Part shown: piece by piece, positions 15,781 to 63,126 of the stretch
Layout of the letters: each line of letters opens with the position of its first letter
Position numbering within the stretch: position 1 is the stretch's first letter
Assembly (NCBI GenBank): GCA_037137535.1
Contig: JBAXKC010000001.1
Coordinates: 224,001-288,000, forward strand
DNA length: 64,000 nucleotides
Direction: 5' to 3'
Origin: a bacterium
GTDB lineage: Bacteria > Cyanobacteriota > Vampirovibrionia > Gastranaerophilales > JBAXKC01
Notes under the pieces: model-generated
The model's input: the letters and a program-made list of their open reading frames with translations, nothing else
Told to the model about the DNA's origin: nothing
The model's database searches: none
Made by a program: the position numbers and the translations under genes

Positions 15781-17793
15781 ATGAACAAAAAGCATAAAAA
15801 TATATCAAAAATACTTGTTTCTTTATATTTATCGACAATTATATTATCAACTCCGGCACAAGCAATTGATAATATTAAACTTAGAGGCAATCTAAGCAAT
15901 GATAAAGCTCTTGAGCTTAAAGGAAATATTAAAATTGATGATTATGCTCAAAAAGTAAATGTAAGTTTACGCAATACAGATATCAGACAAGTGTTAAGAA
16001 TGCTTGCAGACAAAGCAAATCTTAATATTCTTATTCACGAGAGTGTGAGCGGGAAAATATCCTTAGACTTGATTGATGTTACTTTAAATAAAGCTTTTGA
16101 ATATGTAATGACAATGAATGGCCTTTCTTATGTAAAAGACGGCAATACTCTAATTGTTGCCTCAAAAGGAGTAAGCGGCAACCTTGGACTGACAAAGAAT
16201 AAGATGAAACCAATAGATATTAAATATATGGATGCAGTCTCAATATCTGATTTTCTTAATTCCAATATATTTAATCTAAACAGACCTGATATAACAACCG
16301 CACCAATAGTTATAACAAACCCCAGAACAAATCAGATTTATCTGTTTGGAAGTGACGAAGATATTGCTATGGCAGAAAAAACCATAGAAATATTAGACGT
16401 TAAACCTCATATGAAAACTTTTAACGTAAACTATTCAAATCCGACAAAAGTAGCCGGTAATTTATGTAATATTGTTTTTAACGCAAATTACTTTGTACAA
16501 GGCACATCTAGTAGTGGAAGCGGTTCCGGAGGAAGTACCGGTAGTGGAGCTGGCGGTTCTTCAGGAGGTTCTAGCGGATCTGGTTCTTCAGGTGGCGCTG
16601 GTGGCTCCTCTGGTGGAGCAGGAGCAAGCAGTAGCGGGTTTAAAGCCGTTACTATAGGATCAAGCAATGGTTTTGACCTTATATGCGGTCAAGCAAACAG
16701 GCAAACGGCAACAACAAGTGCATCAAGCGTAGGAGGAGGAAGTGCAAGTGGAACAGAAAGCACTAATTCTCCAACTAATGGAACGCAAAATAATGCAATG
16801 AATCAATCAAATAATTCTACCGATAATGAAAGTCAGTCAGCTAAAAAAGATGAAACTGAAAAAGAAAAAGAATTTTCAGGAGCTGGTTCATTTAAAGGAA
16901 TTGATTCAACATTGAAATCCTTAGATGTTGCAGGATATGCCGTATTTGCAAATGATGAAATAAGCCAGATAAGTGTTATGGGAACAGAGCAACAACTTGC
17001 TCTTGCGGAAGAAACAATAAAAAATCTTGATAAACGTCCTCTTCAAGCCTATTTTGATATTTCTATCATTGAAGTTAATGAAACTAACACAAAAACTCTG
17101 GACTCAACTATAGACTTTATAAACAAATACAGTCATGAAATAAAACTAAGCAGTGCAGGATTATCCTATGCACGTCAGGATCTTGCTCATAATGCAACTC
17201 AAGAATCCACTTCAAATTTTAACATTTCAAACGTACTGAAAATAACTAAAGGAAAATTACTCGCTAACCCGAGATTAATCGTATCAAGTAATAAAGAAGC
17301 TAAATTTAGTGTTATGGATAAAGAACCGGGACCTGTTTCTTCAACAAGAGAACCAGATGGTGCAGGCGGATATCGTACTACTTATTCAGTAGGAGCGCCT
17401 GTTGATGTCGGTATTACAGTAACATTATTACCGGTAATAAAACCTAACGGTGAAATTTCATTATCTGTTTCACCGACTTACAGCAATTTAAAAGCAACTG
17501 TAAGCTATGGTGATAGTACTAACTTTGCCCAACAAACCTTAACCTCAGAAAGAGATGTAAGCCTTAAAGATCTTATTTTAAAAGATGGTGAAACTTTTGT
17601 TCTAGGCGGATTAATCAAAGAAGCAGAAAATAAATCCTCAAATAAGCCTTCTCTACTGAATGTAATACCAATAATTGGCGGAATGTTTGGCTATCATGAG
17701 TCTAAAAAATCAAGAAGTGAACTTCTCTTTATAATAACGCCTCATATCGTTAAAGATCCTTCCAATGTAACTCCTCTGCCTGAAACTATATAA
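15781..17793 (+). CDS. pilQ: Secretin (PilQ/GspD family) with Gly/Ser-rich insertion
   Basis: Signal peptide (AQA), N0 'LRNTDIRQVLRMLA', C-terminal 'LKDGETFVLGGLI...IPIIGGMF...ELLFIITPHIV'. Confidence 0.85.
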   Translation: MNKKHKNISKILVSLYLSTIILSTPAQAIDNIKLRGNLSNDKALELKGNIKIDDYAQKVNVSLRNTDIRQVLRMLADKANLNILIHESVSGKISLDLIDVTLNKAFEYVMTMNGLSYVKDGNTLIVASKGVSGNLGLTKNKMKPIDIKYMDAVSISDFLNSNIFNLNRPDITTAPIVITNPRTNQIYLFGSDEDIAMAEKTIEILDVKPHMKTFNVNYSNPTKVAGNLCNIVFNANYFVQGTSSSGSGSGGSTGSGAGGSSGGSSGSGSSGGAGGSSGGAGASSSGFKAVTIGSSNGFDLICGQANRQTATTSASSVGGGSASGTESTNSPTNGTQNNAMNQSNNSTDNESQSAKKDETEKEKEFSGAGSFKGIDSTLKSLDVAGYAVFANDEISQISVMGTEQQLALAEETIKNLDKRPLQAYFDISIIEVNETNTKTLDSTIDFINKYSHEIKLSSAGLSYARQDLAHNATQESTSNFNISNVLKITKGKLLANPRLIVSSNKEAKFSVMDKEPGPVSSTREPDGAGGYRTTYSVGAPVDVGITVTLLPVIKPNGEISLSVSPTYSNLKATVSYGDSTNFAQQTLTSERDVSLKDLILKDGETFVLGGLIKEAENKSSNKPSLLNVIPIIGGMFGYHESKKSRSELLFIITPHIVKDPSNVTPLPETI

Positions 17794-17811
17794 AATTTAA
17801 AGGAAAGTGTA

Positions 17812-19860
17812 ATGAACGCGAGTAATGCACTTGAACAATTACTAAACAGTATAAATAAAACATATATTAATAAATTCCCGATTGATGTTCTTAAAGAAGA
17901 AATGTTTATTCCAATAAACAATGAAGGCGAGACCATTGTTATTGGAATGGTTAATCCTGAAGAAAAAGAACGCCGTAATTCAATATTAACCAAAATTATT
18001 CTTGCGACAAGATTAAAACCAAAAGTTCTTACGCTAAATAAACAGCAATTTGACGATATAATTAAATATTTTGAAGAACAGATAAATTCAGGGCAAGCGG
18101 CGCAGGCTTCGGCTTTATCCGCATCAATTAATCCTCCAACTAAAAAAATTGGAGAAAAGTTAATTGAGGAAGGTCTGATAACTAAAGAACAACTGACTCA
18201 AGCTCTTAGCGACGCAAAAAAAGAAGGTATTCCCGTCGGCTCTATACTTGTAAAACTTGGCTTTATTACTATTGAAGATTTAAAGAGAACCCTATCTAAG
18301 CAGCAGGGAATAGGACACGTTGAAGAAAAGATCGATGCTAAAGCTGTAAAACTTATTCCTGAAGATTTTATTAAATTAAATAAAGTAGTTCCAATAAGTA
18401 CTGATGGAAAAACCTTAGTAGTTGGAATGGTAGACCCCAAAAACAAACAAGCGTTAAATGAAATCATTTACATGACAGGCCTAAAGCCATTTCCTCTTAT
18501 ATTAACTCATATAGAATATGAAAATTACATTAAAACATATCTGGAAACAAAAAAAGACAGCGAAAAATTAATGGAAGAATTTACTAAAGAAGATGAATCC
18601 TCTTTAGTAATAGAAGGCTCTGAAAACCTATGGCAACAAGTAGAAAAAGAACTTCAAGACGAATCAAGCATCGTAGCTAAATTTGCAAGCTCAATCATAA
18701 CTGAAGCTATTGCAAAAAAAGCAAGTGACGTTCACATTGAACCAAGACTTGATAAATATATAGTAAGATACAGAATTGACGGTATCTTAAAACATATTAT
18801 GGATATTCCTAATAAAATTGAAAGTCTTCTTATTTCAAGGCTAAAAGTTATTTCAAGAATGAATATCGCAGAGCATAGAAGAACTCAAGACGGTAGATTT
18901 ACAATTAAATACGGCAGTAAAGTCTATGATTTAAGGGTAAATATATTACCTGTCGGCACTAAAGAAAAAATGGTAATAAGAATCTTACAACCAACTTTAG
19001 AGTTTAATGCAAACGCTAATAAAAATGATATTCAGCTAAACGGTGCAGCAAAAGACGATATTCAAAAAATCAATCTTATGACAACTTCACCACATGGTAT
19101 TATACTTGCAACAGGTCCTACAGGTAGCGGTAAATCAACAACACTCTATTCAGTTATAAATAAATTAAATAGCGAATATGTAAACATAACCACCATTGAA
19201 GACCCTGTTGAAATGAAAATGGATGGAGTAAACCAAGTACAAGTTAATGCAAAAGCCGACATTACTTTTGCAAGCTGTATGAGAGCTATATTAAGACAAG
19301 ATCCGGATATAATAATGGTCGGAGAGATAAGGGACTACGAAACACTGGAAGCGGCGATACATGCGGCTTTAACAGGTCACCTTGTAATCAGTACTATTCA
19401 CACAAACAGTGCAACGGCAACTATAACCAGATTAGTCGAAATGGGAGCTGCGCATCACTTAATAGCCTCTTCATTAATGGGAGTAATAGCACAAAGACTT
19501 ATAAGAAAAATTTGCCCTGACTGCAAAGAGCTTTATGAACCTACTGATGAAGAAATAAAAATGATTAGCTCTCCAATTTATGACGATTCTCGATTTAGAG
19601 GAAATAATATTTATAAAGCGGTTGGCTGTGATAAATGCTCCGGAAACGGTTATATTGGCAGAATAGGTATATATGAAATTATGCCTGTAAATAGAGAAAT
19701 ACGAAAAATGATATCGCAAGGAGCTGCTGGTCATGAAATCGAAGAAGTAGCTATAAGCTGCGGTATGAAAAGTTTAAAAAGAGCTGCTTTAGAAGCTATT
19801 TTAAATGGTAACACTACAATTAGAGAATATGTAAGAGTATTAGGCGCATCAAGCGACTAA
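17812..19860 (+). CDS. pilB: Type IV pilus/T2SS assembly ATPase (PilB/GspE) with MshEN-like region
   Basis: ASDVHIEP, GPTGSGKST, TIEDPVE, LRQDPDIIMVGEIRD, TGHLVISTIHTN, tetra-Cys Zn motif. Confidence 0.92.
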   Translation: MNASNALEQLLNSINKTYINKFPIDVLKEEMFIPINNEGETIVIGMVNPEEKERRNSILTKIILATRLKPKVLTLNKQQFDDIIKYFEEQINSGQAAQASALSASINPPTKKIGEKLIEEGLITKEQLTQALSDAKKEGIPVGSILVKLGFITIEDLKRTLSKQQGIGHVEEKIDAKAVKLIPEDFIKLNKVVPISTDGKTLVVGMVDPKNKQALNEIIYMTGLKPFPLILTHIEYENYIKTYLETKKDSEKLMEEFTKEDESSLVIEGSENLWQQVEKELQDESSIVAKFASSIITEAIAKKASDVHIEPRLDKYIVRYRIDGILKHIMDIPNKIESLLISRLKVISRMNIAEHRRTQDGRFTIKYGSKVYDLRVNILPVGTKEKMVIRILQPTLEFNANANKNDIQLNGAAKDDIQKINLMTTSPHGIILATGPTGSGKSTTLYSVINKLNSEYVNITTIEDPVEMKMDGVNQVQVNAKADITFASCMRAILRQDPDIIMVGEIRDYETLEAAIHAALTGHLVISTIHTNSATATITRLVEMGAAHHLIASSLMGVIAQRLIRKICPDCKELYEPTDEEIKMISSPIYDDSRFRGNNIYKAVGCDKCSGNGYIGRIGIYEIMPVNREIRKMISQGAAGHEIEEVAISCGMKSLKRAALEAILNGNTTIREYVRVLGASSD

Positions 19861-19881
19861 GTCTTATTATTAGGAGTATAC

Positions 19882-21108
19882 ATGTCTGTTTTTACATACA
19901 AAGCGATAAAAGACGGAAGTAATTTTGTTAAAGGAAGCATAGAAGCTACTTCTATTAAAGAAGTAAGAGATATGCTTAGAAAGATGGATCTTGTTCCTGT
20001 AAAAATAGAAGAAGGTCAGTCTAATTCTAATGCATCAAGCATGTTTAATTCAAACAGGTCTAAGCTAAAGCGATTAAGCATGAGAGAAAAAATTGATTTT
20101 ACAAATACAATGCACATTCTTTCAAAATCAGGCGTATCAATAATAGAATCTCTTATGTTTATGGAAACAAATGCCGCAACTCCGAATTCAGGAAAACTGG
20201 CAGAAGAATTAAGAAAATCCGTTTTAGCGGGAGCAAATTTAAGTGAAGCTATCACTAAATTCCCATTTATCTTTGATCAGGTTTTTATAGGATTAATTAA
20301 AGCCGGTGAAGAATCTGGGGAAATAGACACCACATTAGGAAGAATGGTTTTTCTTTTAAAAAAACAAGAGAAATTAAGAGGAAAAATTATAGCAACTATG
20401 GTTTATCCGACTATGGTAATTATTTTAGCGATGGCAGTTACCTTGATAATGCTTATGGTTGTATTCCCTGCCTTTAAAGATGTTTTTGCCACAAGTGGAA
20501 AAAAACTACCATTTATAACCCAATTTCTAATTGATTTAGGAGACTTTTTAAAAACATTTTGGATAGTAGTTCCCATTACTATAGGATCAATGGTATATGT
20601 GGCTTTAAATATAATGAAATGGCGCTTTACCAAGCGACTTATTGATAGAGGATTACTAAAATTACCAATTTTATCAGACTTTGTTAAATATGCATCACTT
20701 TCAAATTTCATTTCCGTTTTAAAAGTTGCATTTGATGCAGGTGTGCCAATTGTAGACAGTTTAATTCTATCAAATCTTACTGTAAGCAATACCGTACTGA
20801 ATCAAGCAGTAAGAAATTCTGCAACAAGTATTCAGAATGGTCAATCGCTGTCAAATTCTTTAAAAAGCACAGAATTTATGCCTCCAATTATCATGTGCAT
20901 GATCTCAACAGGAGAACAATCCGGGAATCTTGGAGAAATGTTAGATCAGGCAGGAGCCTATATAGATGACGAGCTGGAAAGAGTTGTTGATCTTCTGAAT
21001 AAAGCGTCAGAACCCTTCTTACTTGTAGTTATAGGTTCTATTGTATTAGTATTAGCTTTAGCTCTTTATTTACCGTTATTCCAATCTTACGCCAATATGT
21101 CAGGATAA
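19882..21108 (+). CDS. pilC: Type IV pilus/T2SS inner-membrane platform protein (PilC/GspF)
   Basis: AGEESGEID, MVYP, TGEQSGNL, EPFLL; 3 TM; follows the ATPase. Confidence 0.92.
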   Translation: MSVFTYKAIKDGSNFVKGSIEATSIKEVRDMLRKMDLVPVKIEEGQSNSNASSMFNSNRSKLKRLSMREKIDFTNTMHILSKSGVSIIESLMFMETNAATPNSGKLAEELRKSVLAGANLSEAITKFPFIFDQVFIGLIKAGEESGEIDTTLGRMVFLLKKQEKLRGKIIATMVYPTMVIILAMAVTLIMLMVVFPAFKDVFATSGKKLPFITQFLIDLGDFLKTFWIVVPITIGSMVYVALNIMKWRFTKRLIDRGLLKLPILSDFVKYASLSNFISVLKVAFDAGVPIVDSLILSNLTVSNTVLNQAVRNSATSIQNGQSLSNSLKSTEFMPPIIMCMISTGEQSGNLGEMLDQAGAYIDDELERVVDLLNKASEPFLLVVIGSIVLVLALALYLPLFQSYANMSG

Positions 21109-53625: not shown

Positions 53626-54180
53626 ATGGTATTAGCTCATCGTAGTGGTTTTACTGCGTCAAATTTTGGTATGCAAATTGGCTTTGGTTATTATTCAGTA
53701 ATGAAAAAAATTGCAACAAAAGAACATGTTCATTGTGCCTATGGAGGAGAAGAACTTAATGAAGATAATCCTGCAACAGCCGAACATGTAGAACCACATA
53801 GTAAGGGTGGAGCAGATGATGATTCTAATTTTTTACCTGTATGCGAAAAACACAATGGAGAAAGAGGATGTAGATCATATAAAAGATTTTTAAGAGAGAA
53901 ACCAAAAGTCTGGAATAATATAAAAAGAACCATTTTAGAAATAAATAAAATTAAAACTGAGAACTTTGATGGACATGAATGGGCTAAAAAAATTATAAAA
54001 GCAGTTGAAATCCAATCAAAACAAAAACTTAACATTGATATTGATAATGAAGAAAATAATATATTAAATAAAGAGGAAGACCATTCTGAAACGGAATACG
54101 ATTTAGATAAGACATTAATTACTACATCAGGTAAAAAAATATATATAAAACGTGAAAAGCCTTTAGATCTATTTGCTTAA
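53626..54180 (+). CDS. HNH endonuclease-like protein
   Basis: CAYGG...TAEHVEPHSKGG....SNFLPVCEKHNGERG; GAGGA RBS. Confidence 0.75.
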   Translation: MVLAHRSGFTASNFGMQIGFGYYSVMKKIATKEHVHCAYGGEELNEDNPATAEHVEPHSKGGADDDSNFLPVCEKHNGERGCRSYKRFLREKPKVWNNIKRTILEINKIKTENFDGHEWAKKIIKAVEIQSKQKLNIDIDNEENNILNKEEDHSETEYDLDKTLITTSGKKIYIKREKPLDLFA

Positions 54181-54776: not shown

Positions 54777-55442
54777 ATGTCTTTATCAAATTACGGTTCT
54801 TTTGGTATGCAAAATTTACACGCTCAAATTGGTTTTGGCTATAACTCAACAATGAAACACGTTGCAACAAAAGAACATGTACATTGCGCTTATGGCGGAG
54901 AAGAGCTTACTAGCGGACATCCTGCAACAGCAGAACATGTAAAAACTCACTCTTCAGGTGGAGCAAACAGCGACTCTAACTTCTTACCAGTATGTCAAGA
55001 ACACAATGGAGAAAGAGCAAGCATTCCATTTCCTAAATTTCTTGCTACTCATCCAAAGGCATGGAATAACATTAAACAAACCATTCTTGAACTAAATGAT
55101 GTAAAAACATCTGACTTTGATGGACATAAATGGGCTCAAAATATTGTTAAAGTTGTTGAAAAAGAATCAGGCCGTCACATGGACATCACGCTGGGAGATG
55201 ATGATGAAGTGACAACAAGAGATTATTCCTCAGAAATAAAAGACTCTTCTGATAATGAAGAAATCGATAAAACTTTAACAACGAGAACAGGTAAAAAAAT
55301 ATATATTGGTCAAAATAAACCACTAGATATTATTGAAAATGGTGAAACAGAAACGGAGCCGGAAATCGATAAAACTTTAACAACCAGATCAGGCAAAAAA
55401 ATATATATTGGAGAAAATAAACCTATAAACTTCTTCGCATAA
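54777..55442 (+). CDS. HNH endonuclease-like protein (paralog) with duplicated C-terminal module
   Basis: CAYGG...TAEHVKTHSSGG....SNFLPVCQEHNGER; EIDKTLTTR.GKKIYIG.NKP twice. Confidence 0.75.
   Translation: MSLSNYGSFGMQNLHAQIGFGYNSTMKHVATKEHVHCAYGGEELTSGHPATAEHVKTHSSGGANSDSNFLPVCQEHNGERASIPFPKFLATHPKAWNNIKQTILELNDVKTSDFDGHKWAQNIVKVVEKESGRHMDITLGDDDEVTTRDYSSEIKDSSDNEEIDKTLTTRTGKKIYIGQNKPLDIIENGETETEPEIDKTLTTRSGKKIYIGENKPINFFA
55260..55423 (+). repeat. Intragenic direct repeat, 102-nt period
   Basis: gaaatcgataaaactttaacaac...aaaataaacc at 55260 and 55362. Confidence 0.85.
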
Positions 55443-55479: not shown

Positions 55480-56163
55480 ATGTTCAATGCAATTGGACAC
55501 TCGACACAAACAAATATGTTGAGTTTTCAAGCGAGAAAAAAGCACGAAAAGCCACCATTAGATAGAGAACACACAGTCGCAATTCTTGGAACGGGAAAGG
55601 ATCTTGAAACTACTGAAAAATATACACAAATGGCCTATGAAGTTGCAAATAAACTTGCTAAAGACGGTTATAATGTTGTAACAGGAGGTGGTGACGGAAT
55701 TATGTCCGCTGCCAACAAAGGAGCAACCGATGCCGATGCTAAAAAAAGTTTTTCAATTATGGTCAAATACTGGCCAAATAAAATAGGTCAAAAATTTTTT
55801 AACGTTCTAAGCACAGTAATGAGTGGTCCAAAAAGAACTGATATGTTCGCAAAAGATGCAGGAACTTGGATAGTCTTCCCAGGCGGCACAGGAACTCTTG
55901 AAGAAATTGGAGTTGGAACAGAATCCAAATACTATGGTCATAAAGATGATAGAGTAGCACATCCTGATAAAATCATTATGGTTGATCGAGAATTCCAAAA
56001 ACCGCTTAAAGCCTATATTAATGGAATGCAGGAAATGGGATTAGCTCCTTTACCTCAAAATTCTGAAAAAGAAACACTCTTTGAAGAATTATTTGAAGAA
56101 GCTGATACTTCAAAAGAAATAGTTGATAAAGTAGAAAACAAAAAATTATCAACTATTACGTAG
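55480..56163 (+). CDS. LOG/SLOG family nucleotide phosphoribohydrolase-like protein
   Basis: VTGGGDGIMSAANKGA and FPGGTGTLEEI (PGGxGTxxE) motifs; AGGAGG RBS. Confidence 0.85.
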   Translation: MFNAIGHSTQTNMLSFQARKKHEKPPLDREHTVAILGTGKDLETTEKYTQMAYEVANKLAKDGYNVVTGGGDGIMSAANKGATDADAKKSFSIMVKYWPNKIGQKFFNVLSTVMSGPKRTDMFAKDAGTWIVFPGGTGTLEEIGVGTESKYYGHKDDRVAHPDKIIMVDREFQKPLKAYINGMQEMGLAPLPQNSEKETLFEELFEEADTSKEIVDKVENKKLSTIT

Positions 56164-56180
56164 TCTCTAACTATACATTG

Positions 56181-56208
56181 GGCTCAACTTTATGTTGAGC
56201 TCTTTTTT
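56181..56208 (+). terminator. Terminator after the LOG gene
   Basis: gctcaac-tttat-gttgagc followed by a T run. Confidence 0.7.
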
Positions 56209-56308
56209 TATATAAATTTTAAAATTTCACTAAACTATTTTCCCAAATAGCGGATTAAATTTCATTAATTTAAGTTTAAATTAATGAATAAAAATAGAGA
56301 GGTGAAAT

Positions 56309-56581
56309 ATGTTAGAAACATTAATAATAATTCGAAATATTTTACTAAGAACTGTTATTATAAGCATAATTTACGTGTTTATCATCTTCATCTGCTATCT
56401 TTCAATGCAAAATTTCATGATCTCAATGATTGACCAAGTATATAAGATTAATGCGGAGCAATCACACATTTTAATAGTTCATTTTATTGCATTGATTAAA
56501 TTCTTTATTTTATTTGTACTACTTTTCCCTGCACTTGCAATCCATTGGACAATTAAAAAAATAGAAACTAAAAAAAAGTAA
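56309..56581 (+). CDS. Small two-TM membrane protein
   Basis: GAGAGGTG RBS; two hydrophobic helices. Confidence 0.7.
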   Translation: MLETLIIIRNILLRTVIISIIYVFIIFICYLSMQNFMISMIDQVYKINAEQSHILIVHFIALIKFFILFVLLFPALAIHWTIKKIETKKK

Positions 56582-56656
56582 ATTTAAATTAATCCAAAAT
56601 AATAACAGACAATAAAAAGCTAAACAAAATCAAAAAATAAAATATTTTTAATATGC

Positions 56657-56686
56657 AAAAAGAACTCCCAATGGGAGCTCTTTTTG
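56657..56686. terminator. Bidirectional terminator
   Basis: caaaaagaactccc / gggagctctttttg. Confidence 0.7.
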
Positions 56687-56717
56687 TTGAACCTTTTTAC
56701 GTAGGCTATATAAATTC

Positions 56718-57005
56718 CTAGTAGGAATTTGAATAGCAAGATTTACATAATACAGGTCTGTCGCTTGATGGTTTGAAAGGAACTTGAGCAGCTCCACCAC
56801 AATCGGAACATACAGCATCGTACATTCTTTTTTGTTGGAATCCACCAGCACTTCTTCCGCCACCTTTTCTAGCGCTACGGCAAGGCTTACATCTTTTTGG
56901 TTGGTTTGTTAAACCTTTTGATTCGTAAAATTCTTGCTCGCTTACTGTGAAATCAAATTCACAACCACAGTCTGCACATTGTAAAGTAATGTCTTGATAC
57001 GCCAT
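56718..57005 (-). CDS. Zinc-ribbon + CxxC-x17-CxxC domain protein (putative nucleic-acid binding)
   Basis: LQCADCG.EF.F...EQEFY..KG..N.PKRCKPCR; CSDCG..AQVPFKP..DRPVLCKSC. Confidence 0.88.
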   Translation of the reverse strand: MAYQDITLQCADCGCEFDFTVSEQEFYESKGLTNQPKRCKPCRSARKGGGRSAGGFQQKRMYDAVCSDCGGAAQVPFKPSSDRPVLCKSCYSNSY

Positions 57006-57165
57006 TATAGGCCTCCTTTTGTTAATCGATACGCTTTGAATGAGGCCTAGATAATGATATTTAACTGGCTTACTTCAAAAAAGCTATCTTTTTAGTATGT
57101 AACTATCTCACTTGAGATTATAAGAAATCCTGCTTCCAAGCAAATAATTTCTTACAACTAAGACT

Positions 57166-57196
57166 TATTATATAACAAATAGTTCCACTTATGTCA
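57166..57196 (-). promoter_or_regulatory. Sigma70-type promoter giving a ~160-nt 5' UTR for the zinc-ribbon gene
   Basis: TTGACA (57196-57191) then TATATAAT after 17 nt. Confidence 0.65.
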
Positions 57197-57338
57197 ACAC
57201 CCAAAATAAAATATTTTTTTAAATAAAACAAAATATCCATAGATAGTTGATATAAAAGGACCTTTAAAAAACATTGAACTTAATAAATTAAAATATACCC
57301 GCCACAGATTCAATAAACTTATCCATAAAATTTCAAAC

Positions 57339-57381
57339 AAAAAGAAACTTCTACTATCCTAAAATAGAGAAGTTTCTTTTT
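57339..57381 (-). terminator. Intrinsic terminator
   Basis: aaaaagaaacttct / agaagtttcttttt. Confidence 0.7.
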
Positions 57382-57397
57382 TCAATTTACTTATTAA

Positions 57398-59056
57398 TTA
57401 AAATTTAAATTTTAATCCTGCTTGAGCCGAATAATCACCGTTGTCTAAAACATATGATAAGTTAGCATATGGATTTAATCCGTTATCTTTATTTCCTGAT
57501 AATTCAAGATCAAATTGTGGTGTTACGTTGCGTCCTGACTCAAGAGGTATATTTACAGCTACTCCCGCATTAACATTCACATCAGGAATACTTAAGTTAG
57601 GATATTTTGCTCTGTCCTCAACAGGAATACCAAAAGCATTATTATTGTAGAAAGCTCCTGCTCTTACATAAGGGGTATTACTAAATCCTGTTGTTTGACC
57701 TATAACTCCAAGATCTTTTGAAATTTGAGAACCATCATTAAATTTAGCAACTAAAGAACCTGATGTTTGAGTGTTATAAGGGTTATTTAAATTCAAACCA
57801 AGCCCTAATCCTAATCCATATCTTTCATTAGTAGTCGGATTGTTTTTATCGTCAAAAAGTTTATTTCCAATGTTTAAATTTGCTTGTAAAACTGCTTCAC
57901 CTCTTGCAGGAGTTGTATCCACAGATAAACCTGTTCCAATTGAGCCATCATTATTTAGCTTTTCAGTTCTAAATGAAATAGCAGGATCTGTTGGCAATAA
58001 TTGATTATTTGTTGAAAGTCCTAATCCTGTATTAACTATAATTCCTTCTTTTGTTTTTGGATCAACAGGTGCGTTTGTTAGGGTGCTTGCGACAGGAGAA
58101 CCAAGCCTTTTATTTGAAGTAACTAAACTTATTTGAGGCTGTTCCGGAGGAGTAGGTTTATCTTCGGGCTTTGTAGGCTCTACCGGTTTAGGATCTACGG
58201 GTTTTGTTGCGTCTGGAGTATCATAAGAACTGCTTAAGAGTTCCATTACGTTTTGATTTGTAATTTCTTTTCCATTTACATTTCCACAAAAATTCCAATG
58301 TCCAAAAGCTTCATCTTTTAATACTTGGACAGAATCACCATTTGGCATAAAGATAGCATACATTGTTTCATTATCTCTTTTTATTCTTGCTCCGTTAGGG
58401 AAAGATATTTCTTGCCCCGGCTGAATATCTTTACCATCAACCTTTAATGTATTTGAGCCTTCATTTATTTGAATATTATTTCCGCCGATTTTTATATTGC
58501 CGCTTGTTATGCCTTCATTTCCATTTGGCAATTTTCTTACGTTTACATCGATTGAATAATCTTTATCGCCTAAGTTTTCAGCATTAGCATCATGGTTTAC
58601 AAAATTTGTAGGCTTATTTAGAGTTGATACATCTGAAACTAGACCTGTTGCATCATTATTTCCTTTTACGGTCAAAAGATTTAAATTTTCATATAATCCT
58701 TTTGGAATATCAACAGTAGTCTTGTCATGAGTTGCATTAGGGTCGCTACCTGATCCCCAGAAGAAACCCGGTAACTTTGTTGTTGTAGGCTGAGAGACTG
58801 ACTTTATATCTGTACTAAAATGTCTTGCTGCATTTGCAGCTTCTACTGTTTTTTCAAAATCCGCAAAACCACTTTTAAAATCAGTGCTATTCATCAAGTT
58901 CTCTAAAGAATTTGCAGGAATATTAATACCATCCTTTTTCCAGATACTTGCCTGATCAGCCACAGCCTTTTTCTCAGCTCCGGGAACAAGTCCGGTGTTT
59001 AAAGTTACAGGTGCCTTACCTACGAGCTGACTAGCCTGATTAATGAATTCTCCCAT
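57398..59056 (-). CDS. Hypothetical protein: beta-rich (VWD-like) middle, Pro-rich linker, beta-barrel-like C-terminus ending in Phe
   Basis: ATG at 59056 after AAAGGAG; KPVDPKPVEPTKPEDKPTPP linker; alternating strands ending AQAGLKFKF. Confidence 0.6.
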   Translation of the reverse strand: MGEFINQASQLVGKAPVTLNTGLVPGAEKKAVADQASIWKKDGINIPANSLENLMNSTDFKSGFADFEKTVEAANAARHFSTDIKSVSQPTTTKLPGFFWGSGSDPNATHDKTTVDIPKGLYENLNLLTVKGNNDATGLVSDVSTLNKPTNFVNHDANAENLGDKDYSIDVNVRKLPNGNEGITSGNIKIGGNNIQINEGSNTLKVDGKDIQPGQEISFPNGARIKRDNETMYAIFMPNGDSVQVLKDEAFGHWNFCGNVNGKEITNQNVMELLSSSYDTPDATKPVDPKPVEPTKPEDKPTPPEQPQISLVTSNKRLGSPVASTLTNAPVDPKTKEGIIVNTGLGLSTNNQLLPTDPAISFRTEKLNNDGSIGTGLSVDTTPARGEAVLQANLNIGNKLFDDKNNPTTNERYGLGLGLGLNLNNPYNTQTSGSLVAKFNDGSQISKDLGVIGQTTGFSNTPYVRAGAFYNNNAFGIPVEDRAKYPNLSIPDVNVNAGVAVNIPLESGRNVTPQFDLELSGNKDNGLNPYANLSYVLDNGDYSAQAGLKFKF

Positions 59057-59477
59057 CTTAATACTCCTTTTATAAATTTTACATTTTAAATATTTCGTAT
59101 ATATTTCGTATATATTTATAAAAACATTTCGCATGAAAAAATTGCCTGTTAAAAGCCAATATTCATGTTTTTACCATAATTTTTATAAGAAAATACTACT
59201 AAACACTTTAATTACAGACCATTTGACAAATCTAAAGTTTTGTAACATTTGCTTGCGAATTATTAATTTTTTAGTCAAATAAAGAAATACCTCTTTATTG
59301 TTTGTTTTTTTATAATAAAGCATTAAAATTTAATTAAAATCAAACAATTAATTAAGTTTTAATCTATTTCAATAACCTTAGAGATTAAAATTCAGTTTAA
59401 AAACAAAAAAATAATGCTCTATCAATTAAGAACATATTTTATTCCCCAAAATATATTTATTTTATTTAATCTAAGAA

Positions 59478-59506
59478 TTGACCAATGACAATAAATTCTC
59501 TATAAT
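59478..59506 (+). promoter_or_regulatory. Sigma70-type promoter of the pilin-collar operon
   Basis: TTGACC-N17-TATAAT. Confidence 0.7.
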
Positions 59507-59622
59507 GAGATATATAGTTGAATCTACATGAATCAAACAAAAGAAATCACAATAAAATCACCATAACATCAGAAACTGACTTTCAAAAATTGTAATATTG
59601 TAAAAAAATAGGGCTGGATTGT

Positions 59623-60507
59623 TTGAAAATTAAAAATAAAAAATTATATTTTAAGACTGGCTTAACTCTTGTAGAGTCTTTATTTGTTATGGTAATAATG
59701 AGTACAGTTTTAATATCCAGTATTCCTATTTTTGCCAATAAAAAAATACTTAGAACAGACACTCCAAATATTGGAATTGTGGCAATTTGGGCAAACCCCG
59801 GAGCCATTCCTTCAAACTTTCTTGAATGTAACGGACAAGCATATAACGTAGCTGACTATCCTGATTTATTCAACATTATTGGAACGTCCTACGGTGGAGC
59901 AGGCTCAACTTTTAATGTCCCAAACTTACAGGGAAGAACTGCAATAGGAGCAGGAACTGGAGCTGGACTTACAAATAAAGTATATCAAACAACAGTAGGC
60001 TCTGAGGAAGAAAGTCTTACATTAGCTCAACTTCCAAACCATGTTCATATCTTTAACGACCCTGGACACAAACACTGGGACTCAGGACATGCTCATGGAA
60101 CAAGCGACCCTGGACACAAACACTGGGACTACGGACATTCTCACACTTTATGGGATGGCTGGCACAGTCATTATTATAGAGATGTTTATTATTCTGAGTT
60201 TGGCTCAACTCCTGTCCCATGGGACATAGGAACAAATGCCAGAAGTGATTATGACAATAAAGGTCTTGAAATTCGCAGAAATACAAACTGGACCGGCTCG
60301 AATATCGGAATATATAATGGTTATGCAAATGTATCCTATCAAAGTAGCAATCTTGCCGCTTCTACTAATAACGGTAATGCTTCCATTCAATCAGCTCTAA
60401 GCAATGTAACCGTACCTGTAAGCGGTGGAAGTGGAACTGCAACAGGAAATCCTCATGAAAATATGCTTCCTTTTAGAGCTTTAAGATATATTATTAGAGC
60501 AAAATAA
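59623..60507 (+). CDS. Prepilin-type N-terminus fused to phage tail-collar domain and HxH-repeat needle (paralog 1)
   Basis: KTG|LTLVE + hydrophobic helix; IGIVAIWA..IPSNFLECNGQ..YPDLFNIIGTSYG..TFNVPNLQGR; six HxH; HENMLPFRALRYIIRAK. Confidence 0.85.
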   Translation: MKIKNKKLYFKTGLTLVESLFVMVIMSTVLISSIPIFANKKILRTDTPNIGIVAIWANPGAIPSNFLECNGQAYNVADYPDLFNIIGTSYGGAGSTFNVPNLQGRTAIGAGTGAGLTNKVYQTTVGSEEESLTLAQLPNHVHIFNDPGHKHWDSGHAHGTSDPGHKHWDYGHSHTLWDGWHSHYYRDVYYSEFGSTPVPWDIGTNARSDYDNKGLEIRRNTNWTGSNIGIYNGYANVSYQSSNLAASTNNGNASIQSALSNVTVPVSGGSGTATGNPHENMLPFRALRYIIRAK

Positions 60508-60548
60508 TAACTGATTAATAATTACGTTTCATAAGAAAAGAGGCTGGA

Positions 60549-61526
60549 TTGACAAGAAATCTTAATACTAAAAAATCACTTAAATTTCCAAGAAATGGTT
60601 TAACTATTTCAGAAGTATTAGTTGTTATGGTTTTATTTGGTGTTATTGCTGTTTCTTCTATACCTGCTTTTACTTCTAATGAAACTCAAAACAGAGATTT
60701 AATAGCAAGTATTGGAAGTATTATGCTATGGGCAGGTAATGGAAATCCTCCGCCTAATTTTGTTGAATGTAATGGACAATCACTCAACAAAGCTGATTAT
60801 CCACTATTATTTGGTGTTATCGGAAATACCTACGGTTCTACAGCAACAAAATTCAACGTTCCTGACATAAGAGGCAGAGCCGTAATAGGGGCAGGACAGG
60901 GAACAGACCCAAGTCCCTATTCAGGAGTAAGCCCAAACCTGACTCTTAGAAATTTTAAAGATATAGGCGGAACTGAAACTGTCACTCTTACAGCCGCTGA
61001 TTTGCCTAATCATGCTCATGGAGTAACAGATCCCGGACATACTCATTCAGATGCGGGGCATGCCCATTCGGTTGCAGACTATGGACATTCTCATGTTGAT
61101 TGGGGGCATGTTCACTCAGTATGGGATGGCGGACATTCTCATTACTATGATGATATTTATTATGCAGAAAGTATGGGTTATGCTAAATGGATATCAGGTG
61201 GTGGAGCAAATCCACATGGATATAATCACCCAAGCCCTAACGGACCTTTTGTTGGTAATGGACAAGGAGATTGGACAGACTTTGACAATGGCGGACATGA
61301 TATGGGACGTTGGACAAATGCTTCACCTTCGAATTTAGCTCTTTATCCAGGCTATGCAAACCTTACCTATAATGGAACAAATGTAACCTTTGGGACAGGC
61401 TATGCTAATCTTACCTCTAATTCGGCAAACCTCACAATAGTTCCCAGCGGAGGAAGTAATCCGGTTACTCCGCATAATAATTTGTCAGCTGCTCTTGTAT
61501 TAAAATATGTAATTAAAGCCCGATAA
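60549..61526 (+). CDS. Prepilin-type N-terminus fused to phage tail-collar domain and HxH-repeat needle (paralog 2)
   Basis: RNG|LTISE + helix; IGSIMLWAG..PPNFVECNGQ..FNVPDIRGR; six HxH; HNNLSAALVLKYVIKAR. Confidence 0.85.
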   Translation: MTRNLNTKKSLKFPRNGLTISEVLVVMVLFGVIAVSSIPAFTSNETQNRDLIASIGSIMLWAGNGNPPPNFVECNGQSLNKADYPLLFGVIGNTYGSTATKFNVPDIRGRAVIGAGQGTDPSPYSGVSPNLTLRNFKDIGGTETVTLTAADLPNHAHGVTDPGHTHSDAGHAHSVADYGHSHVDWGHVHSVWDGGHSHYYDDIYYAESMGYAKWISGGGANPHGYNHPSPNGPFVGNGQGDWTDFDNGGHDMGRWTNASPSNLALYPGYANLTYNGTNVTFGTGYANLTSNSANLTIVPSGGSNPVTPHNNLSAALVLKYVIKAR

Positions 61527-61556
61527 AACATAATACGCTTATAGAAAGAGGACAGG

Positions 61557-62447
61557 ATGTTAAATTCTTTAAAAATTAAAAATAAGAATAAAAGATTTGG
61601 ACTATCTCTTACAGAAGCGTTAGTTGTTTTAATGGTTGCAGGTGTTGCAGTTGCTGCCTCTATGCCAACAATGTCGGTAAAGACATTACTTAAAACTAAT
61701 TCAGATGTAAGTATAGGTGCTATTGTAATATGGGCAAACAATGGAGCTATTCCTGCTAATTACCTTGAATGTAACGGCCAAACCGTAAACAAAGCAGATT
61801 ATATAAACTTATACAGTATTATTAGCGGTACTTATGGACAAACGGCAACTCAATTCAATGTTCCCGATTTAAGAGGCAGGACTGTTATTGGAATGGGAAA
61901 AATAAGTGCCTTGAGCAAACAACGTAATTTTAATGATGTGGGTGGTAAAGAAAAAGTAAGACTTATTGATACAAATTTACCTGCTCATTCCCATATAGTT
62001 AACGACCCGGGTCATACTCATGCAGACCTCGGGCATACTCATCCTGTTTATGATCCGGGGCATAAACACTGGGATTATGGTCATAGCCATGGAGTATGGG
62101 ATGGTGGACATAGCCATGAATATGGCGATATATATTTTTCAGAATCATGGGGCTGGGTTCCGACACCTGATGGTTTTGGACACTGTGCTAAAAGCGATAA
62201 TGACAACTATGGTTTTCAAATGGGACGCTATACTGATCTAGCCACAAGTAATATTGGTGTTTATCCTGGTAATGCAAATTTCACAACAGAACATACAGGT
62301 GTTTCAGCTGCTACAGGTACGGCAAATCTTGGCAATTCAGTCACAGGTGTTAACTTAAACGCACCTGCAACAGGTGGCGACGATAATAATCTTCATGAAA
62401 ATATGCCGCCGTTTTACACATTGAGATATATCATTAGAGCAAGATAA
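61557..62447 (+). CDS. Prepilin-type N-terminus fused to phage tail-collar domain and HxH-repeat needle (paralog 3)
   Basis: RFG|LSLTE + helix; IGAIVIWA..IPANYLECNGQ..FNVPDLRGR; six HxH; HENMPPFYTLRYIIRAR. Confidence 0.85.
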   Translation: MLNSLKIKNKNKRFGLSLTEALVVLMVAGVAVAASMPTMSVKTLLKTNSDVSIGAIVIWANNGAIPANYLECNGQTVNKADYINLYSIISGTYGQTATQFNVPDLRGRTVIGMGKISALSKQRNFNDVGGKEKVRLIDTNLPAHSHIVNDPGHTHADLGHTHPVYDPGHKHWDYGHSHGVWDGGHSHEYGDIYFSESWGWVPTPDGFGHCAKSDNDNYGFQMGRYTDLATSNIGVYPGNANFTTEHTGVSAATGTANLGNSVTGVNLNAPATGGDDNNLHENMPPFYTLRYIIRAR

Positions 62448-62472
62448 CTAATTTTTTATATTAAATATATTA

Positions 62473-62509
62473 AAAGAGCTGTTAAACTTAAAAATTAACA
62501 GCTCTTTTT
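62473..62509. terminator. Bidirectional terminator closing the pilin-collar operon
   Basis: aaaagagctgttaa / ttaacagctctttt. Confidence 0.8.
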
Positions 62510-62532
62510 GATAAATAATATAATAATGCCTT

Positions 62533-63126
62533 TTAATGCTTTTCCAACTCATTTTTTATAGCCTTTAACGTTGTAGGCAAGGTGTTGTTAAGCCCATAAG
62601 AACGTAAAAAAGACGGTAAATAGAAACCAAGATCAATATACATTGTATAGGTTAATATAGAATTACCCTGATACGGTTCGATTTCCCAAGATCCGTATAA
62701 TTCTTTAAAAGAACCTTCAGTTCTTTTATATATAATTGTTTTAGTTCTTTCATTTTCATCTAAATGCAATGTATATTGAAATACGGGTAAAGCAGGAGCT
62801 GTTTTAAGTGAAACCTGCACCTTTTGGAAATTATGTCCTTTTGCAAGAATTTTATTTTGACGAACCCCAGGGACTATTCGCCCCATTCTTTCCTGATTTT
62901 CAAGTAAAGCCCATACTTTTTCAGGTGATGAATGAATTAATACTTTTCCTTCAGTTCCTTTTAAATCACCCTTGCAATTAAAAAATCTTAAAGCGACTTC
63001 ACCCTTTTGCAATCTTGTAATATTTTCTATTGCCATTGCTTTATTTGGAAATTGCATTGAGAAAATCAAGGATGGGATAATAATAAGACTCATAAGTCCG
63101 TAATGTAGTTTGAGTTTTGTATTCAT
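62533..63126 (-). CDS. SRPBCC/START (polyketide cyclase-like) protein with signal peptide
   Basis: Signal ending AMA; SPEKVWALL, GSFKELYGSWEIEP, C-terminal helix. Confidence 0.75.
   Translation of the reverse strand: MNTKLKLHYGLMSLIIIPSLIFSMQFPNKAMAIENITRLQKGEVALRFFNCKGDLKGTEGKVLIHSSPEKVWALLENQERMGRIVPGVRQNKILAKGHNFQKVQVSLKTAPALPVFQYTLHLDENERTKTIIYKRTEGSFKELYGSWEIEPYQGNSILTYTMYIDLGFYLPSFLRSYGLNNTLPTTLKAIKNELEKH

Follow-up and report, generated by a model that had tools for sequence, protein, structure and literature searches.

Three tandem genes joining a prepilin-type N terminus to a phage-fiber-like collar and HxH needle in a Gastranaerophilales genome

Layout of the three genes and architecture of their products

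We analyzed a 64,000-nucleotide (nt) stretch of a bacterial genome of the order Gastranaerophilales (GenBank assembly GCA_037137535.1, contig JBAXKC010000001.1, forward-strand positions 224,001 to 288,000), here called the window; positions below are those of the window. It contains three tandem genes, A, B, and C, each predicted to encode a prepilin-type (class III) signal joined to a phage tail collar domain and a needle of histidine-X-histidine (HxH) motifs (Table 1). A preliminary description, made from the sequence letters and translated open reading frames (ORFs), had called the genes tandem paralogs, and alignment agreed: pairwise identity is 44 to 47%, the intergenic spacers are 41 nt (A-B) and 30 nt (B-C), and a purine-rich ribosome-binding site lies ahead of each gene. 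A, B, and C are the only genes in the whole genome that match the Pfam Collar model.

Table 1. Coordinates of the three genes, their needles, and associated features of the window
Feature	Position	Strand	Description and evidence
Gene A	59623-60507	+	294 aa, TTG start; ORF list, Pfam, alignment, AlphaFold2 (AF2)
Gene B	60549-61526	+	325 aa, TTG start; ORF list, Pfam, TIGRFAM, alignment
Gene C	61557-62447	+	296 aa, ATG start; ORF list, Pfam, alignment
HxH needle of A, H140-H183	60040-60171	+	Motif positions; 48-nt repeat begins at 60040
HxH needle of B, H155-H198	61011-61142	+	Motif positions, alignment
HxH needle of C, H144-H187	61986-62117	+	Motif positions, 48-nt repeat
Candidate sigma-70-type promoter, TTGACC-N17-TATAAT	59478-59506	+	11/12 positions fit consensus
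Intrinsic terminator, 14-bp stem, 9-nt loop, and U-run	62472-62509	+	-20.7 kcal/mol, z -6.27
Secretin, PilB/GspE-type ATPase, and PilC/GspF-type platform	15781-21108	+	Pfam; one of several candidate machines

In each product, G(-1) to E(+5) fall at the end of a basic leader and the start of a hydrophobic segment. The leaders comprise residues 1-13 of A (cut predicted after G13), 1-17 of B, and 1-15 of C, with four to six Lys or Arg residues each. After G(-1) comes L-[TS]-[LI]-x-E and then about 20 hydrophobic residues in all three copies. The three-way alignment shows no variation at G(-1), L(+1), or E(+5), which are G13, L14, and E18 in A. All three copies have P(+22), as does a metagenomic protein, P0055, described below; G(+14) is present in B and C. 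The class III signals noted earlier are thus found in every copy, and the N termini appear to hold the full register (G-1, E+5, P+22) of the N-terminal helix of type IV pilins (α1N).

We built an AF2 monomer model of A on a 26-row alignment. It has a helix at residues 16-33, with a predicted local distance difference test score (pLDDT) of ~80 to 85, a low-confidence linker at 37-44, a collar from residue 50 at pLDDT ~90, and a closing strand at 288-292 (pLDDT 77 to 93). The parts of A are α1N (14-38), linker (39-49), Collar (50-108), HxH stretch (140-183), tip (186-232), and return plus closing strand (233-294), and B and C have their parts in the same order. A globular alpha-beta pilin head is not present: the Collar starts about 11 residues past the hydrophobic helix, and no further domain was detected by Pfam or AF2. 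By this predicted architecture, A, B, and C are pilin-anchored "headless" proteins and not canonical pilins.

The remainder of each protein resembles the distal part of a phage fiber. Pfam Collar (PF07484) matches all three at 62.6 to 66.2 bits against a cutoff of 24, so that the collar half of the family matches anticipated in the preliminary description was recovered in full; the prepilin half is weighed below. Six HxH motifs follow at the 9/7/9/7/9 spacing described earlier, starting at residues 140/149/156/165/172/181 in A, 155/164/171/180/187/196 in B, and 144/153/160/169/176/185 in C. The alignment is ungapped across this stretch, and the needle DNA consists of a 48-nt (16-codon) repeat unit. 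Every copy also has the previously noted C-terminal motif H-x-N...L-x-Y-[IV]-I-[RK]-A, which is modeled as a strand. Among the three pairs of proteins, neither the collar (53 to 63% identity) nor the HxH stretch (62 to 71%) contains an indel. The other regions are the linker past the N-terminal helix (8 to 27%; indels, 0 to 1), the collar-needle link (22 to 43%; indels, 5 to 10), the tip (38 to 46%; indels, 1 to 20), and the return strand (27 to 40%; indels, 3 to 4). In B, 10 residues are inserted behind the collar, and the tip carries 19 to 20 extra residues (15 + 4).

A profile of the three proteins matched the long tail fiber of cyanophage A-1(L) in the PDB (8kec_A; E value, 3e-10) over the collar, the HxH stretch, and the return strand, and T4 gp12 was also matched. 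A Foldseek search with the AF2 model gave as its top matches 8kec_A (2.4e-6), the T4 gp37 tip (2xgf_A; 4.8e-5), and gp12 (1ocy; 1e-4). The TM-scores were 0.2 to 0.3, low because the needle is unmodeled in the AF2 monomer, which is what a single chain from an intertwined trimer should give. In PHROGs, A, B, and C match tail-fiber and tail-collar families only, and some alignments reach the last residues. A-1(L) gp34 is a trimeric fiber whose matched part is its 180-Å arm, residues 156-379 (PMC10966104, in excerpt), and T4 gp37 binds seven iron ions through its HxH pairs (as quoted in PMC11705849, in excerpt). The number of HxH layers in homologues ranges from 3 to 8, with a period of 7 or 9. 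The preliminary description had proposed that a phage fiber tip was grafted where a pilin head would be. The match to 8kec_A, the Collar and Foldseek matches, and the missing head support this proposal and suggest that the body of each protein is a phage receptor-binding fiber tip in place of the pilin head.

The preliminary description also placed the three genes under one promoter and one terminator. The terminator held up: a consensus terminator scan overlooked the hairpin downstream of C, and it was found by a test of folding energy against shuffles, none of which (0 of 200) folded as well. The promoter fits the consensus, but this AT-rich stretch has no excess of promoter-like sites (20, versus 15.1 ± 4.1 in shuffles), and hence it stays a candidate. 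Rfam gave no match within 56000-62700, and the only inverted repeats in 59400-62550 are two short, AT-rich pairs. The G+C content at third codon positions (GC3) of A, B, and C is 0.21 to 0.24 (5 to 95% range of the genome, 0.156 to 0.266), as for resident genes; their higher total G+C is due to a Gly-, His-, Pro-, and Ala-rich composition. Contigs of two metatranscriptome libraries, likely from the source sample, align with zero mismatches to parts of A, B, and C; one spans the A-B junction, and one extends to the B-C spacer. These matches are compatible with transcription but may also stem from DNA carry-over. The bins 59214-59514 and 62525-62825 have no cover in either RNA library and are covered by DNA run X3, a pattern that allows no inference on transcript ends.

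Related fusions, pilus machinery, and flanking genes

We ran the Pfam Collar model on 401 genomes of the same order (400 besides the source genome); 72 genomes matched, and ORFs were read at 56 loci. We counted an ORF as a fusion if, along with a Collar match, it had the prepilin-type residues E(+5), P(+22), and either G or A at -1. Prepilin-Collar fusions were found in 21 of the 400 other genomes, all of them in one family (f3). The fusion is of a minimal form, 116 to 128 aa without a needle, in 18 of the 21 genomes. One genome (G391) has three prepilin-Collar forms of 255 to 301 aa with one HxH, and another (G369) has a longer form; overall, the longer forms in the order are of 255 to 311 aa with one HxH. 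We scanned six fusion ORFs with both family models, a co-occurrence check that the preliminary description had proposed. Collar was over the cutoff in five (L298 scored 23.0 versus 24), N_methyl (PF07963) was over the cutoff in three, and these three (L275, L262, and L288) passed both.

A broader hmmsearch of 1.84 billion representative sequences matched 54,389 proteins, of which we read 12 of the best 150, picked for N-terminal cover. Among those 12, a prepilin signal, Collar, and HxH motifs occur together only in P0055, a 251-aa protein from a metagenome contig with an N_methyl score of 21.4 bits (over the cutoff) and fewer HxH layers than A, B, and C. The six-layer needle with its tip was seen in none of the other fusions read from the order, and P0055 has a shorter form. 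With the three-protein profile, no match in 40 same-order genomes covered the N terminus, and no fusion was found in 400 same-class genomes at an E value of ≤1e-9. Pattern scans found no fusion in 14 GTDB loci or in the best 80 of 390 JGI metagenome loci. Weak profile matches over positions 1-100 in same-order genomes led to 14 loci; an ORF with a prepilin motif was found at 9 of them, in each case an ordinary pilin. A word-based protein search with B missed even its paralogs A and C, so its silence on relatives means little. The idea that the fusion is near-unique or very rare was overturned by the Pfam Collar search. As read from these ORFs, the prepilin-Collar fusion is a lineage-wide family in the order and is common in Melainabacteria. 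To our knowledge, the Melainabacteria pilin-Collar family has never been studied experimentally.

Collar domains occur in other settings among these relatives. The same class has Collar proteins with a Sec signal, of the "microcystin-dependent protein" type and ~180 to 200 aa (L026, L029, and L045); A, B, and C differ from them in the G|LxxxE class III pattern and in a much longer needle. One genome (G511, loci L262-L274) has at least 14 paralogs of ~125 aa with a prepilin signal and the first part of Collar. The ORF that follows at L263 carries a Sec-type signal and finishes with the collar-closing strand, as if the Collar were split across two genes. Mini prepilin-Collar genes lie in a shared neighborhood in three genomes (L302:6091-6432, L303:6144-6503, and L304:5713-6198), where three conserved ORFs precede them (one with the motif CPHGLP...CP.C..MGGGG) and two ~300-aa proteins and two response regulators lie opposite. 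Prepilin signals are also found in the same order on YadA-head repeats with the S74 intramolecular chaperone known from phage tailspikes and on the C-terminal domain of Lcl, Lcl_C (L023:1507-2829 and L024:1489-2613), which adds to the trimeric fiber modules seen behind pilin anchors, and relatives attach such signals to FN3 as well. Five gut relatives (L253, L254, L258, L261, and L256, in genomes G560, G291, G478, G265, and G480) have head-to-tail arrays of 3 to at least 6 Collar ORFs (165 to 225 aa) without a signal; these ORFs are conserved in the N-terminal half and vary in the C-terminal half, much as cassettes of alternative fiber tips would. A metagenome contig (L071:4881-5702) encodes Collar and HxH behind a plain N-terminal membrane anchor that does not resemble a prepilin signal, with six His residues and then Pro-Thr repeats at the C terminus.

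The source assembly is 2.95 Mb with 31% G+C. Its PilB-type ATPase has its nearest named homologues in Melainabacteria, Gastranaerophilales, and ACD20 bins, and the source DNA occurs in metagenomes that two studies obtained from freshwater and lakes. The genome encodes one prepilin peptidase (Peptidase_A24), 17 kb beyond the window in the region of contig C1 positions 305437-305814, together with three secretins and five T2SSE-family (PilB/PilT-type) ATPases, two of them of PilT size; T2SSF is present in the window. The PilQ/B/C-like genes that the preliminary description put at 15 to 21 kb are there, and the nearest named homologues of the window's T2SSE-type ATPase are called PilB, GspE, or ATPase of type II secretion systems (T2SS), type IV pili (T4P), or type IV secretion systems (T4SS). 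A prepilin motif scan of the genome gave 22 ORFs, of which 15 are pilin-like (A, B, and C plus 12) and 7 are internal membrane segments. The 12 other pilin-like ORFs sit on contigs C2, C6, C10, and C14. Two regions, C10:3361-5307 and C14:28574-30984, hold tandem triplets of pilin paralogs (~190 aa and ~250 to 280 aa) with near-identical N-terminal helices. This genome habitually carries pilin genes in triplicate.

Around the three genes are two HNH endonuclease-like ORFs, a SLOG/LOG-like protein, a small zinc-ribbon ORF, a family-less 578-aa protein, a SRPBCC protein, and YdjC. As described earlier, phage structural genes do not flank the operon: a PHROGs scan of seven flanking proteins gave no match to a phage structural family. 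The HNH endonuclease-like ORFs (53626-54180 and 54777-55442), in a stretch of 24 to 28% G+C 4 to 6 kb upstream, are the sole phage-like matches nearby. The 578-aa protein (57398-59134, minus strand) is divergent from the operon and has no Pfam or PHROGs match; it has a Pro/Lys/Glu-rich linker, a Gly/Asn-rich C-terminal half, and a final F, as often in outer-membrane barrels. The zinc-ribbon-like ORF (56718-57005, minus strand) encodes 95 aa with two CxxC pairs and has no Rfam, PHROGs, or other family match. Of the RNA-library contigs aligned to this stretch, those of greatest word depth lie over it, at 56675-57150 (depths of 176 and 51, versus 3 to 14 nearby).

A favored reading and its alternatives

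We lean slightly toward the reading that A, B, and C are headless modular type IV pilin-like proteins that carry trimeric phage-fiber needles and serve as filament-displayed adhesins. Judging by the families involved, the single prepilin peptidase would cut after G(-1), and the α1N helices, three per needle, would keep the chains in the inner membrane. The ectodomains would trimerize, by analogy with solved relatives, and in each HxH layer six His residues would surround one metal ion, giving six ions per needle. The three helices could allow the needle to prime a type 4 filament or form its cap, and the filament would pass it through a secretin and out to the surface; there, the variable tip may bind a ligand on a particle, a surface, or another cell. 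The sequences establish the order of the domains, the motif register, the machinery genes, and a family of such fusions in the order, whereas cleavage, trimerization, metal binding, filament display, and adhesion are inferred. The most likely arrangement would be three homotrimers with different tip specificities. We favor homotrimers because the solved relatives are homotrimers (A-1(L) gp34), because divergence and indels concentrate in the tip and loops, because ordinary pilins also form tandem triplets in this genome, and because the differing indels would strain a mixed trimer.

Several observations weigh against this reading. The PF07963 scores of A, B, and C (13.2, 19.8, and 14.7 bits) are all below the Pfam cutoff of 21.2, and with TIGR02532 (12.2, 17.4, and 9.7 bits; cutoff, 16.3) B alone passes, so that the prepilin matches anticipated in the preliminary description were recovered only in part. 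The leaders are longer (13 to 17 residues), with Leu at +1, whereas the genome's other pilins have short leaders followed by F or M. Since there is no pilin head, the canonical α1C and head contacts would be impossible in filament packing. The operon is 38 kb from the nearest pilus machine, with no pilus machinery or other pilin gene adjoining, and in a genome with several secretins and ATPases the linkage suggested earlier is weak. Four mini prepilin-Collar neighborhoods in relatives contain no pilus genes, and in three of the four the setting is conserved and unrelated to pili. The missing head, the lack of linkage, and these neighborhoods would suit a class III signal used for export or anchoring only, with the needle held at the periplasmic face of the inner membrane or released by a T2SS-like piston and never in a filament. 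The Sec-signal Collar proteins of the same class point the same way, as they indicate that Collar modules serve cells as exported proteins of an ordinary kind. We nevertheless find this doubtful: a receptor-binding needle would have no obvious periplasmic target, the conserved E(+5) and P(+22) of the α1N register are residues used in filament assembly, and Streptococcus sanguinis modular pilins with adhesive modules act on pili (PMC8179133, in excerpt). It is highly improbable that the genes are instead a prophage remnant, that is, ordinary tail-fiber genes with N termini merely resembling prepilin signals. Viral contigs do encode the body's nearest full-length relatives, at 33 to 35% identity from the collar to the C terminus (L140-L142), and the HNH endonuclease-like ORFs lie upstream. 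However, the flanks lack phage structural families, none of 79 loci in viral contigs has a prepilin-like N terminus, and G-1, E+5, and P+22 are conserved in three diverged copies and P0055; moreover, GC3 is host-like, and the genes are intact, with their own promoter-like site and terminator.

A further question is which chains would share a needle. The preliminary description had read the exact common register as a sign of one hetero-trimeric needle at a pilus tip. In such a structure, a single chain of A, one of B, and one of C would make up an asymmetric needle that caps the pilus via a three-helix α1N bundle. We consider this unlikely, and less likely still is its extended form, in which the chains co-assemble as a six-ion needle that both seeds and caps a type 4 filament and the 16-residue period is kept since the chains need register. 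The three genes do lie in one apparent transcription unit, and the number and spacing of HxH motifs are kept at only 44 to 47% identity, though homologues vary in both. Mixed pseudo-trimers also exist, as single chains with three different Collar modules and one HxH each (P0052, P0057, P0058, P0064, P0068, and P0130); one catalogued pilin chain has FN3 and three Collar domains, and the GspK-I-J tip complex is a heterotrimer (PMC8179133, in excerpt). Specific support is limited, however, to the equal register. The solved relatives are homotrimers, and the indels that differ among the copies in the collar-needle link (10), tip (19 to 20), and return strand (3 to 4) would break three-fold packing unless loops absorb them. 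The ordinary pilin triplets on C10 and C14 indicate that three copies need not mean one complex, and no sister copies of P0055 were detected among the best 150 hits. A complex prediction with the ectodomains of A (48-294), B (53-325), and C (51-296), on 26-row alignments, scored 0.29 against a mark of 0.32, with no controls, and speaks neither for nor against binding.

If A, B, and C are displayed on filaments, they probably make sticky pilus tips in a freshwater relative of cyanobacteria. In their architecture, the genes show a complete phage receptor-binding needle of the T4 gp37 and A-1(L) gp34 type that a cell has taken over and set on a type IV pilin assembly helix with nothing between. 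Filament display would mean a compact, modular retargeting of pili through swapped phage-fiber tips and a natural test case for the docking of a three-fold fiber on a helical filament. Were the hetero-trimer true, it would be the first hetero-trimeric phage-type fiber, and a domesticated phage receptor-binding protein with which a nonphotosynthetic cyanobacterial relative might seize particles, prey, or partner cells. The ectodomains, at ~245 to 275 aa, should be expressible, making oligomer state, metal content, and ligand testable although the organism is uncultured.

Comparison with known modular pilins, phage fibers, and trimeric tips

We take IPR011083 to be the entry for the tail collar domain. 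Raynaud et al. (2021) described modular pilins as more than 1,200 proteins with 264 architectures, including S. sanguinis PilB (vWA) and PilC (lectin) (PMC8179133, in excerpt). Their Dataset S1 has the rows IPR012902-IPR003961-3xIPR011083 and IPR012902-IPR007001-IPR011083, one protein each, and 29 proteins with a phage S74 chaperone domain (PMC8179133). All four IPR011083 occurrences are in those two rows, and a plain signal-plus-Collar architecture is not among the entries of the data set. A, B, and C are like modular pilins in having a class III signal, α1N, and a binding module foreign to pilus biology, for which a tip location was proposed. They combine a prepilin motif with a nonpilus domain, as modular pilins do, with the pilin part reduced to α1N. 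They differ in being headless, with the module about 11 residues past α1N, in carrying a predicted obligate-trimer fiber with six HxH layers, and in occurring as three tandem paralogs.

Milman et al. (2023) reported a shufflon PilV N terminus with a tail collar (UCP91044.1) beside pilus operons, likened it to phage fiber variation, and proposed that it sets pilus binding specificity (PMC9881135, in excerpt). Both systems join a minor-pilin N terminus to a Collar domain. PilV-Collar has PF04917 and programmed inversion, whereas A, B, and C vary as three fixed paralogs and have no PF04917 match up to an E value of 1 (Pfam reported Collar and N_methyl only). Pilin-Collar fusions are thus already known, both as catalogued architectures (Raynaud et al., 2021) and as PilV-Collar (Milman et al., 2023), and the fusion is less novel than the preliminary description assumed. 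A limited literature search found no published account of prepilin-Collar fusions in Melainabacteria, and the excerpted text of PMC4451040 does not contain one.

The phage tips A-1(L) gp34 (8KEC), T4 gp37 (2XGF), and T4 gp12 (1OCY) share with A, B, and C the collar, HxH layers of the metal-binding type, tip, and a returning chain that closes the collar, and the matched region is about the size of gp34's 224-residue, 180-Å arm. Those tips are anchored via N-terminal phage domains to a baseplate or shaft; the predicted anchor of A, B, and C is a pilin helix, with no phage structural genes near. Three pilin helices under one tip have precedents for both kinds of trimer: the CofB homotrimer of the type IVb pili of enterotoxigenic Escherichia coli is predicted at the pilus tip, and the GspK-GspI-GspJ heterotrimer is at the tip in type II secretion (both as described in PMC8179133, in excerpt). 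In contrast to A, B, and C, these subunits retain pilin heads, and their extra domains are not phage derived. A, B, and C thereby add a needle-bearing branch to the pilin-Collar fusion family. What is new here, in the predicted proteins, is a gp37-like needle of six HxH motifs set directly on a pilin helix, headless and in three copies.

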